From a virus (taxonomy: Duplodnaviria > Caudoviricetes), in the IMG/VR virus record IMGVR_UViG_3300028025_000089: a stretch of DNA of 64,000 nucleotides; one strand, 5' to 3'. The notes below the pieces were generated by a model. It saw only the letters and a program-made list of their open reading frames with translations. It did no database searches and was not told the origin of the DNA. The translations under genes were made by a program, and so were the position numbers. Every line of letters begins with the position of its first letter. The first letter of the stretch is position 1. This document shows positions 358 to 15,801 of the stretch, in pieces.

Positions 358-432
358 GGTGTGGTAGCTCAGTAGGTAGAGCAAGGAGCCGGAAAACTCC
401 TGTGCCGATGGTTCGATTCCATTCCCATACCA
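358..432 (+). tRNA. tRNA-Phe-like gene with an 8-nt anticodon loop (CCGGAAAA)
   Basis: Acceptor GGTGTGG/CCATACC; D arm GCTC/GAGC; anticodon stem AGGAG/CTCCT around the 8-nt loop 389-396; T loop TTCGATT. Confidence 0.75.
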
Positions 433-438
433 CAAACA

Positions 439-6779: not shown

Positions 6780-7670
6780 ATAGATTATCCAATCAGGAAA
6801 AGTTTTGTCAGATTAATTGACGTGTAATTGAAACGAATGTTTCATCTTGGAATGATAAAGATATTGGGCAGTATATGGTCCATTAAAATAAACCATGAAA
6901 GTGGGATAAAGTGAATTATTTGTGTTAGATAGTTTGCGGCTTCTTCGGGAGCTCGAGTATACAAGCGGGATACCGTTTAACCTTTAGTATCGAGGGCAAC
7001 GCTGTAGAGAAAGTGGTTAGATGATTTGGCGATGTGGGTCGTCAAATTGAGGTGGGAACACCAATAGGAATAACTCGTAGGAATTTTGCAAAACAAAGTG
7101 TTCCAACACTTTCATTGCGAGTTCCAATATTAGAGGATACTTAAAACCGAAAGGTATGATAACAAACGGGTGGTGCCGACATTATCCTTGATGAACTCCT
7201 ACCAAGGGGTTAATCTCGAAGTAGTCTTAAAGTATGGAAATGGGGACATTTCAGAGAGTAGTTGAGTATTTCGTTGTTCAAAAGATAACGAAGCCCGTGA
7301 CGGACCACTACTTTCACAATCCACGACACAAAACTTATGGAAGTTGTTATTTTCCAAAAAATAATTATTACATTAAGGAAAAGTGTCCGTCAGGTTTGAA
7401 TGAAAGGTGACTACATAGTAATGAGCAGTTCATTGCACACAAAGATCCCAAGTCGATGTGTAATTTTTCGAAAAACCTTTAATCCCGCAAGGACGAACTG
7501 GGGAGGCATCCTCGGAAAGAGTTAAAGTAGAATGAGAGTAGTTCAGACCTCAAGGAGTGGTATACCTAAAAGACCGTCACTGAGAAATACTTCTCAAAAG
7601 GAAGTGGATAGGAGTAGAAACAATAATGACTCTAAAGGTTCTCACAAATAGGTGTAATCTCAACCTTTTA
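6780..7670 (+). ncRNA. giant structured ncRNA, probably GOLLD family (boundaries approximate)
   Basis: About 890 nt with no ORF in the track, GC-richer than the flanks. C(UUCG)G hairpin 6939-6952; GNRA hairpins 7147-7156 and 7237-7252; long-range helices 7219-7225/7307-7313 and TGACGGAC (~7298-7305)/GTCCGTCA (~7385-7392); terminal helix AAAGGTT (~7635)/AACCTTT (7662-7668); tandem promoters upstream and a terminator downstream. Confidence 0.7.
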
Positions 7671-7707: not shown

Positions 7708-8268
7708 TTAGGGACGATGTGAATCGATCCCTTTTTTTGTTTTTACTGATTGGTAAATAAGATCAATAAAGTTTAACATTTCATCATGTGTCATTGAATT
7801 TTTTGCATGGTTACATGCGGTGCTTATAAATTGTATGTTTCCTTTCACATACCCTAAATTACTATTGATCCTATCTAAAGAGGCGGTATTGATGTTATTA
7901 CCATTTTCATTTGGTTGAACTAATTTAACACCACTATAAACACAAATGCCACTTTGTATTTCCCATTGATCTAAAAGATCTTGTAAATCAATGTTATACT
8001 CATGATGTCTTTTTTTTAGTCTTCTGAAATGCTCTCTAAGTCCTGTAAATTGATCTCTACGGTTGTTTCTTTGTGGTTCTAAGTATTTAATATTTTCATT
8101 AACATATTGTTTTAAGTGGTTGTGATTATCAATACCACAACATTTTCTTGAGCAATAGTTTTTTCTACCAATTTTTTCGTTTCTAACTATTTCAGACTTA
8201 TCTTTCAAAAACTCAATACCACAAGATGGGTTAGAACATATTGTTAATTCTTTTTTTCTTTGTCTCAT
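7708..8268 (-). CDS. free-standing His-Me finger (HNH / endonuclease VII-like) homing endonuclease
   Basis: N-terminal Cys motif C..PSC...YCSRKC; C-terminal C.YSG...SLDRINSNLGYVKGNIQFIS.ACN.AKN. Confidence 0.8.
   Translation of the reverse strand: MRQRKKELTICSNPSCGIEFLKDKSEIVRNEKIGRKNYCSRKCCGIDNHNHLKQYVNENIKYLEPQRNNRRDQFTGLREHFRRLKKRHHEYNIDLQDLLDQWEIQSGICVYSGVKLVQPNENGNNINTASLDRINSNLGYVKGNIQFISTACNHAKNSMTHDEMLNFIDLIYQSVKTKKGIDSHRP
7710..7738 (+). terminator. intrinsic terminator downstream of the large ncRNA
   Basis: AGGGACGAT-gtga-ATCGATCCCT followed by a T run. Confidence 0.6.
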
Positions 8269-8331: not shown

Positions 8332-8364
8332 AAAAAAAATCCCACCATAATTAAATAGTGGGAT
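8332..8364 (-). terminator. tmRNA terminator
   Basis: ATCCCAC...GTGGGAT inverted repeat (8339-8364); the A run at 8332-8339 gives a U tract on the minus strand. Confidence 0.65.
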
Positions 8365-8368
8365 CAAT

Positions 8369-8786
8369 TGGTGGACCTAGAGGGCTCCGACTCCCTCGTC
8401 CGGCTCGTCTTGTCTAAAAGACAACTACATGTTTAGATCAAGGTTTTTCATACCTTCCGAAATATTTGGTTCCTATTTTTACATTGTTACCAAAAACTGT
8501 GTCGAGTTCACTTTGTTACGGTAGCCCTCTGAACGAGACCGTTGTTTCCTTTTAGAGTGAAAACCAACTCATCTACGACTTCTGTTGCTAGGTTATCTGT
8601 CTGACCGACCCCCCGTTTCCGTATCTAATTAAGCTACAGTAACTTCAGAACCTCTTACTAATCCAAGAGTTTCCATTTTGTTTAGCACATTGCCAGTTGT
8701 GTTTTGAATCAGTTTTTAACGAGATTAATTCAGTCCCGACATGCTTCTTTTATTCAACCAACGCCCGTCAAATCCAATATAGGCCC
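8369..8786 (-). ncRNA. ssrA: tmRNA (SsrA)
   Basis: 5' GGGCCTA-TATTGGATTTGAC; 3' T arm GAGGG-AGTCGGAG-CCCTC, then TAGGTCC-A-CCA. Acceptor stem has the G3:U70 alanine determinant. Internal tag frame at 8694-8629. Confidence 0.93.
8629..8694 (-). other. tmRNA tag reading frame (A)GNVLNKMETLGLVRGSEVTVA*
   Basis: Resume codon inferred as GGC after AACT; open for 21 codons to TAA. Confidence 0.75.
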
Positions 8787-8823
8787 ATATATCTTAAATG
8801 ACTATTTTCAAAGAACTATAATA

Positions 8824-8854
8824 CAAATATAATACAAAGATTTCACTTTGACAA
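8824..8854 (-). promoter_or_regulatory. Bacteroidota sigma-A type promoter for ssrA
   Basis: On the minus strand: TTG (8854-8852), N20, TAtaTTTG (8831-8824). Confidence 0.65.
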
Positions 8855-8869
8855 TATATTTATAAATAT

Positions 8870-10006
8870 ATGAAAAAAAGACTTCTTATAGAAAATGATG
8901 TTTCAGAAATGACGGATTTTCAAAAAATCCTTCTTTTAAATAAAAGAAAGTTGTCTTCTGATGATGTTGAATTTGAAAGTGATAATTACGAAGACTTGAA
9001 ACTAAATCATGTTCAGATTAAACCTGATGGTCTATTATTTGATTTTGATGATTTAGAACAGTTTTTAAAGTTTTTTCATTATCCTACATTTGAAGAAGGA
9101 ACTGACGGTGAGTGGGATGCGACTAATTATGATCGTATGTATTATGGTCAATATGATTTTTATAGTGAGTGTCAAGATCGAGCATACGACGATTGGAGTG
9201 AAGGATATACTTTAGGATATCTTTGTAGTGAAGCAAAAATCAGATTAAGAGAATTACTTAAAATAATTGCACCTAACCTTGTTGATAATATTAAAGAAGA
9301 CGGTAGTAGAATTGATGATGAAAGTCAAATAACTTCAGTATTGGACAAATACTTTCAACATATTGGAGATGAAATGGATGATATTATATGTTCTGCTAAA
9401 TCGAATGGAACTGAAGCGGGAGTTAAAGAAGCGATTGAAAAAGAATATTGTAATACACTTAGTGAATATGGTGTTGAAAAATGGGGTAAGTGGTGTTTTG
9501 GATTATACTTTATAAGTTGGGGTAATCTGGTTCAGTTATTTGTTGAAGATGGTGAATTTGATGTAAACGCTCTTGATGTATTAATTCAAAAAATCGATAA
9601 AAAATTTAGACACGGTCTTCCTGAATATTACGAAATGGAATACTATGTTATGGACAATGAAGTATTTGAATCTGAGTCTTGTGAAAAATTGGTTAATTTA
9701 ATTGATGAGTATATAGAAAGAGCCCAAGAAGAATTTTCTTCTGAATATATTAAAATTATTAATAAACTCTCATCTTTGGATTTATTATATAGAAGAGAAA
9801 TTCCAGGTCAAAAAAATTTATTTATAAAAGTGGATTCAGTTGATCCTGAAACATTAAAGGTAAAGTATCTTATTGGGTCAGGAGGTTATTTTGGTGATCG
9901 TAAATATGGTTTGGCAACTGCTGATGAGGTAATTGCAATGGCAACTCAGCCAGGTTTATTCAACCCAACTGAGTTTAGAATCGATCCAGGTCAATTAAGA
10001 CGATAA
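8870..10006 (+). CDS. acidic hypothetical protein (late-motif gene)
   Basis: 378-aa ORF; TATTTATA at 8857-8864. Confidence 0.75.
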   Translation: MKKRLLIENDVSEMTDFQKILLLNKRKLSSDDVEFESDNYEDLKLNHVQIKPDGLLFDFDDLEQFLKFFHYPTFEEGTDGEWDATNYDRMYYGQYDFYSECQDRAYDDWSEGYTLGYLCSEAKIRLRELLKIIAPNLVDNIKEDGSRIDDESQITSVLDKYFQHIGDEMDDIICSAKSNGTEAGVKEAIEKEYCNTLSEYGVEKWGKWCFGLYFISWGNLVQLFVEDGEFDVNALDVLIQKIDKKFRHGLPEYYEMEYYVMDNEVFESESCEKLVNLIDEYIERAQEEFSSEYIKIINKLSSLDLLYRREIPGQKNLFIKVDSVDPETLKVKYLIGSGGYFGDRKYGLATADEVIAMATQPGLFNPTEFRIDPGQLRR

Positions 10007-11022
10007 CGCTCTTTTAGAATCTTGTATAATTTTAAACCATCTTCATCATCAATATAAAAGTGGTTTTCATCGTATATGTCGGCGATTATGAACCCATCTT
10101 TTTCTTCAATCACATCAATAGATGTTAGTTGGTGAACCTCATCGTAAAATGGGCTTTCATCAACATCATCAAAATTATATAAAGATTTAACAGGTTTTGG
10201 TTCATCGTATTTGAATTCGTATTTTTTCAAACCAAGATCTTTAACCATGTTTTTTCCAGCTTCGATTGCTCTTTTAACATCATCTATACATACAAATTCA
10301 TTTGCTGTGTGCATATTATAATAACCACATGACATATTGATACAAGATAGGTCAGATAGTTGTTTAATCATCATAATATCGGTATATGGGTGAGACTGAA
10401 CCAACATCTCGTTATTAAACCCTTTTGTGATTGATCGAATTGCGGTATTGAAGAACTCTCCTTCTTTATCAAATAAAGTGGTTCCCATGCAAGCCTGTGA
10501 AATTAAATGATCACCAGGTGCGTCATATTGGACGCAATAACCAACATCTTTTAAAAACTCTTTATCTACCAATTTTGATCCGTGGCAACCTGTTTCTTCT
10601 GAAACGAAAAACGCAACTTTAACTTTATCTAATTGAGAAAGAAGTTCCAAACAAATATAAATTCCACATTTGTCATCACCACCAATTCCTGTTGGGTTAT
10701 CGTCTTTATCATATGCCTTTAAACATAATACTTGATCTCTTCCAAAATCTTTTCCAAATGTAAATGGACGAATAAGATATTCTTCTTTAACAATTATTTC
10801 ATCAACCAGTTCGTGAACCGTGTCGGTGTGAGAAATAAACATTGGGTAAAATTCACCTTCATCCAACGTTCCTTTAGTTGCATATATGTTAAGGTTTCCG
10901 TCACAGATTAAAGTAACTCCTTCCATATCACCAATGGTAGAAATTAAATACTCCACCATTTTAATTTCCTCATAAGTCTTGGTTGGGACAGATAAGAGTT
11001 CTTTAAATTTATTTAGATTCAT
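9991..11022 (-). CDS. M28/M20-family zinc peptidase
   Basis: SHTDTVH, GGDDKCG, SEETG and QYD...H metal-binding motifs. Confidence 0.8.
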   Translation of the reverse strand: MNLNKFKELLSVPTKTYEEIKMVEYLISTIGDMEGVTLICDGNLNIYATKGTLDEGEFYPMFISHTDTVHELVDEIIVKEEYLIRPFTFGKDFGRDQVLCLKAYDKDDNPTGIGGDDKCGIYICLELLSQLDKVKVAFFVSEETGCHGSKLVDKEFLKDVGYCVQYDAPGDHLISQACMGTTLFDKEGEFFNTAIRSITKGFNNEMLVQSHPYTDIMMIKQLSDLSCINMSCGYYNMHTANEFVCIDDVKRAIEAGKNMVKDLGLKKYEFKYDEPKPVKSLYNFDDVDESPFYDEVHQLTSIDVIEEKDGFIIADIYDENHFYIDDEDGLKLYKILKERYRLN

Positions 11023-12141: not shown

Positions 12142-14181
12142 TTATTCTTTCTTTTTTCTTGTTCTTTTAACTTTTTCTTCTTTATTAGAAATTATAACAT
12201 CATCATTTTCGACTTTCAAAATATATTCTTTGTTTTCTTCAATTTCCATCATTAAGATTTTTTCGGAAATTAAATCTTCAATTTTATTTTGAATTGCTCT
12301 TTTGATAGGTCTTGCACCAAAAGTTTCGTCAAAACCAACTTTAGATAGATAATCAACCAAATCTTGTTCATAAGAAAAATAGTATTTTTTCTCTGAAACT
12401 CTTTTTAATAATTTGTCAATCTCTAACTTGGTAATAACGTCAATGTGTGGTTTTTCTAAAGAGTTAAAAATTACAACATCATCAATTCTATTTAAAAACT
12501 CAGGTGAGAAAAACTTTTTCATTTCTTTCTTCAATACATCTTGTTTTTCTTCTTCTTTAACAACATCACTTTTTTGAGGTTGGAATCCCATACCAGTTCC
12601 AAAGTCTTGTAATTTTTTAACTCCAATGTTGGAAGTCATAATAATCAAACAATTTTTGAAGTTAATTTTACGACCTAATGAATCTGTAATGTGGCCATCA
12701 TCTAACAACTGAAGAAGTGTTGAGAAAATGTCTTTGTGAGCTTTCTCGATCTCATCAAACAATACAACAGAATAAGGTTTGTTTTTAACTTGTTCAGTTA
12801 ATTGACCACCTTCATCATGACCAACATATCCTGGAGGTGATCCAATCAAACGAGAAATGGTATGTTTCTCTTGATATTCACTCATATCTACACGAATCAT
12901 ATTGTCTTCACTACCAAAGATTTCTTTCGCCAATTGTTTTGCCAAATACGTTTTACCAACACCCGTAGATCCCAAGAAAATAAATGAACCGATTGGTTTA
13001 TTTGGATCTTTGATTCCAATTCTATTTCTTCTAATTGCTTTTGAAATTTTATTCACCGCTTCTTCTTGACCAATAACCTTTGAATTTAAACTTTCATTTA
13101 AATTAATTAATGAATTTCTTTCGTCCAAATTAATATTGGAAATTGGAATTTTGGTCATGTTGGAAACCACCTCATAAATTAAATCTTCAGGAATACTTCT
13201 TTTACTATTCAATAAACTTTCTTCGAATTTCTTTTTTTCTAAATCCAACTTTGATAAAACATTACGTTCTCTATCTCTTAACTCGGCAGCCAACTCATAT
13301 TTTTGTTGTTTAATAACATTCATTTTTTCTTGTTTGATGGCGTTTGCTTCGTCCTTTAATTTTTCGATTTCTTCAGGTAATTTGATGTCAATTTGCATTC
13401 TTGATCCAACCTCATCCAAAATATCAAATGCTTTATCAGGAAACTCACGATCTGTAATATATCGATCAGCCAACTCAACAAATGTCCAAAGAGTTTTATC
13501 ATCATAAGTCACTTTGTGGTGATCTTCATATTTTGATTTACTCATCTTTAAAATTTCAAATGTTTCTTCTTTTGAAGATGGATCAACAATAACCTTTTGA
13601 AATCTTCGATCTAACGCACCGTCTTTTTCAAAGTGTTTTCTATATTCATCCAAAGTTGTTGCTCCAACACATTGAATATCTCCTCTTGATAAAGCTGGTT
13701 TTAAAATGTTTGACGCATCTAAAGAACCTGAACTATTTCCTGCACCAACCATAGTGTGAATTTCATCAATAAATAAAATGATGTTTGGGGTTGCTTGTAA
13801 CTCTTCGATAATAACTTTCATTCGTTCTTCGAATTGACCTCTATATTTTGTTCCTGCGACTAATGAATTTAAATCTAAAGATACAATTCTTTTATCCATT
13901 AAATTTTTTGGACATTCACCGTTGTGAATCATCATTGCAAGACCCTCCACAATTGCTGTCTTTCCTGCACCTGGTTCACCAATAATAATTGGGTTATTTT
14001 TCTTTCTTCGAGATAAAATCTGAGCGATTCTAAAAATTTCTTTTTGTCTTCCAATTACAGGATCTAATTTCCCGTCTTGTGCTAACTTATTTAAGTCTTT
14101 ACTAAAATTATCTAATACAGGAGTCCCGCTATCAGATTTCTTTTTTGATTTGTCATTTCCTTCGTCCATAAATTCTAACAT
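12142..14181 (-). CDS. clpC: ClpC-type AAA+ unfoldase lacking the N-terminal Clp domain
   Basis: LDPVIGR; Walker A GEPGAGKT and GSTGVGKT; Walker B FIDEIH and FDEIEK; UVR-like M domain (AIKQEKM..IKQQKYELAAELRD); MGF ClpP-docking loop. Confidence 0.92.
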   Translation of the reverse strand: MLEFMDEGNDKSKKKSDSGTPVLDNFSKDLNKLAQDGKLDPVIGRQKEIFRIAQILSRRKKNNPIIIGEPGAGKTAIVEGLAMMIHNGECPKNLMDKRIVSLDLNSLVAGTKYRGQFEERMKVIIEELQATPNIILFIDEIHTMVGAGNSSGSLDASNILKPALSRGDIQCVGATTLDEYRKHFEKDGALDRRFQKVIVDPSSKEETFEILKMSKSKYEDHHKVTYDDKTLWTFVELADRYITDREFPDKAFDILDEVGSRMQIDIKLPEEIEKLKDEANAIKQEKMNVIKQQKYELAAELRDRERNVLSKLDLEKKKFEESLLNSKRSIPEDLIYEVVSNMTKIPISNINLDERNSLINLNESLNSKVIGQEEAVNKISKAIRRNRIGIKDPNKPIGSFIFLGSTGVGKTYLAKQLAKEIFGSEDNMIRVDMSEYQEKHTISRLIGSPPGYVGHDEGGQLTEQVKNKPYSVVLFDEIEKAHKDIFSTLLQLLDDGHITDSLGRKINFKNCLIIMTSNIGVKKLQDFGTGMGFQPQKSDVVKEEEKQDVLKKEMKKFFSPEFLNRIDDVVIFNSLEKPHIDVITKLEIDKLLKRVSEKKYYFSYEQDLVDYLSKVGFDETFGARPIKRAIQNKIEDLISEKILMMEIEENKEYILKVENDDVIISNKEEKVKRTRKKKE

Positions 14182-14350: not shown

Positions 14351-14713
14351 ATGTTTAATTGGAACGAATTTGATAAATTATTTAATGAATTTTTTTCTTC
14401 ATCATTTGATGATAAAAACTGGACTAAAAATACTTATAGGTCACCAGATGGTTTGTATTCTATGTCTTATATGACAAGAAATTTTAATAACTCAAATCCG
14501 TCAGATGAATTATATGTATTGAAAGAAAAATTAAACTTGGCAATTAAAGAAGAAAATTTTGAGGAAGCTGTAAATTTAAGAGATGAAATTAAAAAGTTAG
14601 AAAAGAACAAAGAAGAGTTATCAAAGTTAAAAATTAAGTTGGACGAATGTATTCGAAACCAAGACTTTGAAAAGGCGATAGAATATCGAGACAAAATAAA
14701 ATCTCTTAAATAA
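14351..14713 (+). CDS. double UVR-domain protein (McsA/MecA-like adaptor candidate)
   Basis: Two UVR motifs, LKEKLNLAIKEENFEEAVNLRDEIK and LKIKLDECIRNQDFEKAIEYRDKIK; aromatic N-terminus FDKLFNEFF. Confidence 0.75.
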   Translation: MFNWNEFDKLFNEFFSSSFDDKNWTKNTYRSPDGLYSMSYMTRNFNNSNPSDELYVLKEKLNLAIKEENFEEAVNLRDEIKKLEKNKEELSKLKIKLDECIRNQDFEKAIEYRDKIKSLK

Positions 14714-15036: not shown

Positions 15037-15801
15037 ATGGATACTTCAGATATTTTAAAAAGTTTCGAATCTCAAGATGAACTAAACCCAAAGATTTGGT
15101 ATCTACCAAATGAAAAATACATGGGTGATCCTGAAGGTCAAAAAATGAAAATGAGACCTGAAGTTAGAGAAAAACTTTTGGAAACAGCAAATATCTTCAT
15201 TGACTTTTTAGGTGTTGACGTAATAGTCACAGATATTATTATGATCGGTTCTTTAGTTAATTATAACTGGTCAAAATTTTCTGATATTGATTTACACATC
15301 GTGGTTAACTTTAATCAATTCCCTGAAAATAGTAGGGATTTATACCTTGAATTTTTTGATTTGAAAAAAGTAATCTTTAATCAAAGACACAATATTAAAA
15401 TGTTTGGGTATGATGTTGAATGTTTTGTCCAAAGAGAAGACGAGACAACTTTTAGTAGTGGTATTTATTCTATTCTTTATGATATGTGGATGAATGAACC
15501 TAAAAAAACAAGTAAAGAAACTCTTGATAAAGAACTAATAAAAGAAAGGGCTAAACAATGGATGAGAATTATTGATGGTGTTGTTGATAACATCGAAGAT
15601 GAGGATCCTGAAGAAATTAAAAGTATTGTAAAAAAATACAAAGAAAAATTAAAAAACTTCAGAAACTGTGGTTTAGAGAAAGGTGGTGAAATGTCGATAG
15701 AAAATTTGGTATTCAAATTACTAAGAAGAAACGGATATGTTGAAAAATTGTATGAATTACCGACCGAAATTATCGATAAAAAACTATCCATGAAACAATA
15801 A
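15037..15801 (+). CDS. Pol-beta-superfamily nucleotidyltransferase
   Basis: GSLVNYNWSKFSDIDLHI (GS...DxD) plus a downstream YDVE acidic residue. Confidence 0.75.
   Translation: MDTSDILKSFESQDELNPKIWYLPNEKYMGDPEGQKMKMRPEVREKLLETANIFIDFLGVDVIVTDIIMIGSLVNYNWSKFSDIDLHIVVNFNQFPENSRDLYLEFFDLKKVIFNQRHNIKMFGYDVECFVQREDETTFSSGIYSILYDMWMNEPKKTSKETLDKELIKERAKQWMRIIDGVVDNIEDEDPEEIKSIVKKYKEKLKNFRNCGLEKGGEMSIENLVFKLLRRNGYVEKLYELPTEIIDKKLSMKQ

Follow-up and report, generated by a model that had tools for sequence, protein, structure and literature searches.

Phage-encoded tmRNAs are known but have been little studied. They have been described in cluster C mycobacteriophages (Bxz1), in Bacillus phage G, in marine myophages (Melnitz, in which the molecule is two-piece) and in huge phages that also carry SmpB, and their presumed role is to sustain translation while the infection proceeds (PMC4131195, PMC9004378, PMC7162821). 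Two of these phage surveys called tmRNAs with ARAGORN (PMC9004378, PMC7162821), a tool that misses the two members of the present family on which we tried it. Among cellular systems there is precedent for tags of some 20 residues or more: the ssrA tags of Mycoplasma and Mesoplasma are of unusual length and are recognized by Lon, an example of a lineage re-aiming its tag at a different AAA+ protease (PMC8403727, PMC9382460). Here we analyzed a tmRNA gene in a 64,000-nt stretch of viral DNA (hereafter the window; IMG/VR record IMGVR_UViG_3300028025_000089), which comes from an uncultured freshwater giant phage belonging to a lineage of ~300-kb T4-type freshwater phages. Like the known phage tmRNAs, it is encoded by an entire ssrA gene within a large genome of the lytic type, but it represents a different lineage, is one-piece and resides in freshwater T4-type phages. 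The RNA carries a 21-residue tag whose peptide is conserved and is unlike that of the likely host, which raises an experimentally tractable question: which protease reads it?

The gene runs on the minus strand from a mature 5' G to an encoded CCA (8369-8786), and all elements of the RNA given below lie on the same strand. It matches the Rfam tmRNA model RF00023 end to end (model positions 1-374; 78.5 bits, E 8.8e-29, for a gathering score of 47 bits) and its structure can be read from the sequence, so the original prediction of a complete phage tmRNA was right, including its coordinates. The 7-bp acceptor stem pairs GGGCCUA (8786-8780) with UAGGUCC (8379-8373), which yields the G3:U70 alanine identity pair, and the 3' strand continues into the discriminator A (8372) and the encoded CCA (8371-8369), the last of which is absent from the tmRNA genes of many relatives. 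Pseudoknot PK1 (~8705-8738 in the Rfam alignment; CGGGA/UCUCG plus UGAAUUA/UGAUUCA) lies downstream of helix 2. The T-arm (8380-8397) has a GAGGG/CCCUC stem and an 8-nt loop, AGUCGGAG (8392-8385), which lacks UUC and departs from the canonical 7-nt UUCRANY. The tRNA-like domain had been described as intact; this holds for G3:U70 and the CCA but not for the T-loop, which we would regard as a variant feature rather than a defining one for the tmRNA family. Upstream, a promoter-like site (8824-8854, minus strand) combines TTGTCA, a 17-nt spacer and TATATT (8854-8826; 10/12 matches) and is overlapped by a TAnnTTTG-type box, TATATTTG; the block at this site is conserved among relatives, and its reach to 8854 accounts for the outer coordinate first assigned to the locus. 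Downstream, a strong intrinsic terminator hairpin with a T-run begins 3 nt past the CCA (8338-8365, minus strand). Bracketed in this way, the tmRNA is predicted to form its own transcription unit. Confirmation with ARAGORN, which had been proposed as a check, was not obtained, since the program called six tRNAs in the window and missed the tmRNA gene; it also missed the tmRNA of a close relative that has a canonical tRNA-like domain.

Comparison with the one-piece tmRNAs of Bacteroidota shows several similarities. The tRNA-like domain with G3:U70, PK1, the resume codon, the tag frame, the stop codon in helix 5, the 3' pseudoknots and an A four bases before the resume codon are common to both. 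A glycine GGC resume codon at about nt 93 (93-96) is also found in Tenacibaculum, in a Sphingobacteriales metagenome-assembled genome (MAG) and in another Bacteroidota genome, and the context of the resume codon in some of the phage relatives, UUUAAAU / GGC, is that of Bacteroidota tmRNAs. It differs from them, besides the tag and the sequence as set out below, in that the molecule described here is phage-encoded, that the window copy has an 8-nt T-loop and that ARAGORN misses it.

This tmRNA belongs to a sizeable viral family. Exact-pattern scans of IMG/VR with the tag start, the PK1 loop and the PK2 region retrieved well over 150 related contigs of up to 304 kb, and nhmmer detected the tmRNA in the window and in 175 fetched IMG/VR loci, all of them relatives of this single gene. 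Five near-complete relatives (97-100% by CheckV, 291-304 kb) each carry one copy (95-118 bits with Rfam). Using 42 representatives with mutual identity below 90%, RNAalifold recovered the acceptor stem, helix 2, PK1, the T-arm and one 3' pseudoknot stem, with compensatory changes in 23 of 47 consensus pairs; acceptor positions 4-7 covary while G3:U70 is fixed, and the PK1 pair at columns 52/71 occurs as CG, GC and AU. The types of tRNA-like domain, tag and PK2-4 are shuffled among members, which points to frequent recombination in the family. In one relative (L085) a large internal deletion leaves the tmRNA without PK2-4 and with a tag frame of only 13 codons, and this copy has probably decayed. 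With the window tmRNA as query, blastn matched none of 50,697 deposited phage records, and the nearest cultured phages Flavobacterium phage immuto and Microcystis phage Mel-JY01 have no tmRNA. When the phage tmRNA was compared by BLAST with 401 Bacteroidota genomes, only ~30 nt of the tRNA-like 3' end matched, and therefore no donor lineage was found. The gene appears to be an old phage lineage rather than a recent capture.

The unusual T-loop is one of several alleles. The canonical UUCGA loop is found in 106 of the relatives, an 8-nt loop (AGUCRRAG) in 40 and a T-loop interrupted by a group I intron in nine; the window copy has no intron. The stem enclosing the 8-nt loop covaries (GAGGG/CCCUC, GUGAG/CUCAC, GUGGG/CCCAC and CGGGG/CCCCG), and this loop is a recurrent and, it would seem, functional allele, although binding of SmpB and EF-Tu to a loop without UUC is putative. 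Seven of the intron-bearing loci were scanned with Rfam and matched RF00028 at 90-99 bits (L014 3940-4164, L135 8352-8575, L091 7035-7258, L072 1490-1712, L147 844-1096, L165 2297-2596 and L175 76-298), and the other two (L141 and L153) were assigned to this class from their sequence pattern alone. Directly downstream of the window tmRNA there is an HNH/EndoVII-type endonuclease gene (7708-8268, minus strand; PHROG endonuclease families, E 4e-21), which is likely to encode a free-standing homing endonuclease. A homologue is carried downstream of the tmRNA by 15 relatives, namely at 7/33 loci with the 8-nt loop, 7/8 with the intron and 1/84 with the canonical loop, an association with the noncanonical alleles that gives a Fisher p of 3e-7 when kinship is ignored. 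On the simplest reading, the enzyme would cut canonical T-loop DNA, in which case its carriers would be protected either by the intron or by the 8-nt allele, and the latter is probably kept through resistance to an endonuclease of this kind. Such a reading explains the "aberrant" T-loop without assuming loss of function, and the link between T-loop allele, intron and endonuclease would represent a case in which pressure from selfish elements has shaped a motif of an essential RNA. A full-length GOLLD RNA (RF02032, 313 bits; 7254-7666, plus strand) is found ~700 nt from the window tmRNA, with the endonuclease gene in between, and GOLLD also lies 1-1.5 kb from the tmRNA in L014, L135 and L091 (288-330 bits).

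The 21-codon tag frame reads from GGC to GCU (8632-8694, minus strand) and encodes GNVLNKMETLGLVRGSEVTVA. The resume codon GGC (8694-8692) is nt 93 of the RNA, ten bases after PK1; the last codon is GCU (8634-8632), and the UAA stop codon (8629-8631) sits at the top of helix 5. In E. coli the frame depends on A86, which lies four bases ahead of the resume codon, and a U85C change can be tolerated (PMC2481249). The phage family matches this U85/A86 rule: the pentamer C-A-A-C-U upstream of GGC (8695-8699) places an A at -4 (8698), this A is present in 72/72 unique family contexts and position -5 is always a pyrimidine (C/U). Aligning the tags across related phage tmRNAs, as had been suggested, shows that 152 of the 153 related viral contigs have a frame of exactly 21 codons (the exception being the 13-codon L085), with TAA as stop codon in 149 relatives, TAG in 3 and TGA in 1. 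We also considered the +1 frame GCA AUG UGC UAA (AMC-stop), which would correspond to the 11-nt spacing after PK1 seen in E. coli, but its stop differs among relatives (codon index 3, 11 or 12) and the invariant A at -4 fits the GGC frame only, for which reasons we discarded it. The first stop shifts about in both alternative frames among relatives. The original reading of the tag thus stands, and the family comparison settles the choice between the two frames.

Variation in the tag follows codon position. There are 23 full-length peptide variants and 42 nucleotide variants among relatives, and the variable sites fall at 16/21, 6/21 and 19/21 of first, second and third codon positions, respectively. 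The pN/pS ratio is 0.53 in the GGC frame, compared to 0.69 and 2.3 in the other two, a value that indicates no more than moderate constraint on the peptide. The family consensus is G-[ND]-V-L-x-[KN]-[ML]-[ES]-x-[LVI]-G-L-[VIL]-x-x-x-[EQD]-V-[TSA]-V-[AS]. Hydrophobic residues stay in place, as does a central T-[LV]-G, and every tag ends in V-[TSA]-V-[AS]. Distant relatives still have 21 codons with very different sequences (GETFAKLQTLGLVRTEGVTVA, GDVFANATVGHFVTEGATVAA), one distant variant, G[DN]VFANATVGHFVTEGATVAA, ends in a more classical VAA, and deeper relatives end in TVAA. Because of the constant length, the codon-position pattern and the invariant A at -4, the 21 residues are seen to be under selection as a peptide, and the fact that the tag is kept in more than 150 related phage contigs argues that the peptide itself matters. 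The last three tag codons pair in helix 5, and therefore RNA structure also constrains the C-terminal residues.

The tag is best judged against that of the host, which is probably a member of the Bacteroidota. The window phage encodes a T4-type portal, a major capsid protein and a large terminase, and its DNA has 31% G+C. Upstream of 47 long window open reading frames (ORFs), the leaders of which are A-rich, a Shine-Dalgarno-like tetramer was found in 0/47 cases, compared to 8.9% at random positions. Initiation independent of a Shine-Dalgarno motif is typical of Bacteroidota. The Bacteroidota -7 box TAnnTTTG was also considered as a host marker and was dropped in favor of the missing Shine-Dalgarno motif, because it is not enriched across the window (101 matches vs. 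107 expected). This assignment, which is indirect, draws on the lack of a Shine-Dalgarno motif and the 31% G+C, on the nearest cultured phages by portal identity (those infecting Microcystis, 41.6%, Rhodothermus, 36.7%, and Flavobacterium, 36.5%), on the glycine resume codon at nt 93 and on the SmpB encoded by one relative, the two best matches of which are from Bacteroidota, Tenacibaculum and a Sphingobacteriales MAG (46% and 40% identity, in a scan that was pattern-biased and weak). All 21 Bacteroidota tmRNAs that we sampled with ARAGORN encode tags of 9-10 residues ending in LAA or MAA, namely GEDNYALAA, GENNYAMAA, GEYNYALAA, ADNYNYALAA, ANYNYALAA and DNNYSYRLAA (the last found 16 times). 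As originally proposed, the 21-residue phage tag ending in VTVA departs sharply from this type.

How the tag might work can be proposed by analogy with bacterial tmRNA. The RNA would be transcribed from its own promoter and end at its own terminator, be trimmed to the tRNA-like end, be charged with alanine via G3:U70 and be delivered to stalled ribosomes by SmpB, that of the host in most family members. The A at -4 would direct translation to resume at GGC, and the stalled product would receive an alanine followed by the 21 residues of the tag. We consider a degron role the likeliest for this extension, with two parts: a nonpolar, Ala-terminal end, and a conserved upstream segment that would confer extra specificity. 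The reader would be an AAA+ protease, which might be host ClpXP or Lon, or the phage ClpC-type unfoldase described below together with ClpP. To a working tmRNA that adds a two-part degron read by some such protease we assign roughly even chances, and we judge it the most likely reading by parallel with the long Mycoplasma tags read by Lon (PMC8403727, PMC9382460). The phage tag is likewise long, with a nonpolar, Ala-terminal end. However, Mycoplasma tags end in YAFA-type sequences, have no sequence similarity to the phage tag and evolved in cells lacking ClpXP, which the phage's host presumably keeps. The window tag ends in V-T-V-A, that is, it is nonpolar and Ala-terminal with VA rather than AA, whereas ClpX reportedly prefers AA, according to work by Flynn and colleagues in 2001. 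Synthetic circuits make use of variant tags to adjust degradation, one of them being the LVA form of the E. coli tag (PMC9382460). It had been suggested that the phage might spare tagged proteins from ClpXP. This seems the weaker option, since the C terminus stays nonpolar and Ala-terminal and deeper relatives end in TVAA. Identifying the reader could provide a natural orthogonal degradation tag, and could reveal how large phages cope with the many broken messages and stalled ribosomes that an infection generates.

The two-part degron has to be weighed against more specific and more skeptical readings, the former prompted by the genes next to the tmRNA. Upstream of it and on the same strand there are genes for an M42/M20-like metallopeptidase (9991-11022, minus strand; weak matches to Pfam PF05343 and PF01546, PHROG peptidase E 2.7e-36) and for a ClpC-type double-AAA+ unfoldase (12142-14181, minus strand). 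The latter has 679 residues comprising two AAA+ modules and a D2-small domain (AAA PF00004, AAA_lid_9 PF17871, AAA_2 PF07724 and ClpB_D2-small PF10431), and its closest solved relatives are the ClpC proteins of S. aureus (6em8, E 3e-214) and B. subtilis (3j3s), with E values of about 1e-212 to 1e-214. It shares with these Firmicutes enzymes a pair of AAA+ modules, a short middle domain of the coiled-coil or UVR-like kind and a GF loop for docking on ClpP; the loop follows sensor 1 of D2, where MGF in the phage protein aligns with AGF in S. aureus. The main difference, besides being phage-encoded, is that it has no ~145-residue N-domain: the alignment begins at about ClpC residue 150, and no Clp_N domain is matched in Pfam. 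In cellular enzymes this N-domain binds adaptors and phospho-arginine. The "phage ClpC" invoked in the original prediction is therefore real, with its ClpP-docking loop kept and, family-wide, a place next to the tmRNA. Of the loci whose flanking DNA was long enough to make them eligible, ClpC is present in 58/62 and the peptidase in 109/113, always on the tmRNA strand, and ClpC is 2-3 kb away on that strand in all five near-complete genomes. One of these five (G002) adds SmpB (PF01668, 143 bits; contig 138238-138636, L179) and ClpP (160 bits; contig 68265-68786, L180). This neighborhood is suggestive of a proteostasis cluster, and it is conceivable, if rather unlikely, that it constitutes a private pathway in which the tag is read by the N-domain-less ClpC on host or phage ClpP, orthogonally to host ClpXP, with the M42-like aminopeptidase yielding amino acids for phage protein synthesis at the end. 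An unfoldase that keeps the ClpP-docking loop and lacks the adaptor-binding domain, and a tag that differs from all 21 sampled Bacteroidota tags, would both be in keeping with this. If true, the 22-residue address would be read poorly by host ClpXP and well by an adaptor-free phage ClpC, stalled translation products would be turned into amino acids for virion synthesis, and a virus would carry a natural orthogonal degron-protease pair. However, all of these loci come from related phages in one family, and therefore synteny alone is no proof of a functional link, since adjacency may be inherited gene order. In a deeper clade (L164, L167, L171 and L175) ClpC is not adjacent to the tmRNA, being elsewhere in one contig and not found in two other, incomplete contigs. 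Moreover, ClpC-type unfoldases usually need adaptors, and we identified no conserved adaptor, the small neighboring ORFs being variable. Neither SmpB nor ClpP was found in the other four near-complete relatives, and most members must therefore use those of the host.

The opposite possibility is that tagging has nothing to do with proteolysis, which we also regard as doubtful. The tmRNA would then serve only to recycle ribosomes, the tag would have drifted from a host degron so that its products escape ClpXP, and its conservation would reflect RNA structure, termination efficiency or a nonproteolytic role of the peptide. [quoted passage not shown] An irrelevant peptide, however, should not hold 21 codons and a hydrophobic pattern across 23 variants and divergent relatives. 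The end also remains nonpolar with Ala or Ser in last position, as it is in known C-terminal degrons. Besides, no long ORF in the window ends in a tag-like motif, and a search of the window ORFs for tag-like C termini or internal tag mimics found none. That the RNA is a decoy, which titrates host SmpB or blocks host trans-translation and whose tag is rarely or never translated, is very improbable in our view. Mycobacteriophage DS6A does encode an RNA with little beyond the tRNA-like domain, and such molecules can inhibit tmRNA (PMC4131195), and the T-loop in the window is noncanonical. But most relatives have canonical T-loops, and a decoy would have no need of the mRNA-like domain, PK1, the A at -4, the 21-codon frame and the helix 5 stop, all of which are maintained. 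Finally, ssrA is a common integration site and ssrA fragments occur in prophages (PMC9004378), so the gene might in principle be a host-derived remnant that serves no function for the phage, such as an attP-type fragment acquired by imprecise excision. We consider the chance of this almost negligible, since the gene is full length, covaries, occurs once in each of the five near-complete T4-type genomes and has its own promoter-like site and terminator, and since the 401 Bacteroidota genomes match little more than its extreme 3' end.

Several other features of these genomes deserve mention. In G002, which is complete, the ClpC-like gene is split (contig 149179-152900, L184 and L186) into two same-strand parts, corresponding to residues 2-72 and 63-678 and separated by ~1.6 kb, between which an intron or another insertion may have come to lie. 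Divergent from the ClpC-like gene in the window, a gene at 14351-14713 (plus strand) encodes a 120-residue protein with two UVR motifs (PF02151, E 2e-18), which is found in 41 tmRNA loci and which we take to recall McsA, a UVR-containing partner of ClpC. Farther along, the 254-residue product of 15037-15801 (plus strand) has weak matches to nucleotidyltransferase domains (NTP_transf_2, Pol-beta type; phrog_36119). A role for it in tRNA or tmRNA 3'-end addition is conceivable, because many relatives have tmRNA genes without an encoded CCA. Last, one of the tRNAs called by ARAGORN in the window (358-433, plus strand) has a four-base anticodon (ggaa), was not assigned an identity and scores only 36 bits with the Rfam tRNA model; it could be a tRNA with an expanded anticodon loop or a degenerate copy.
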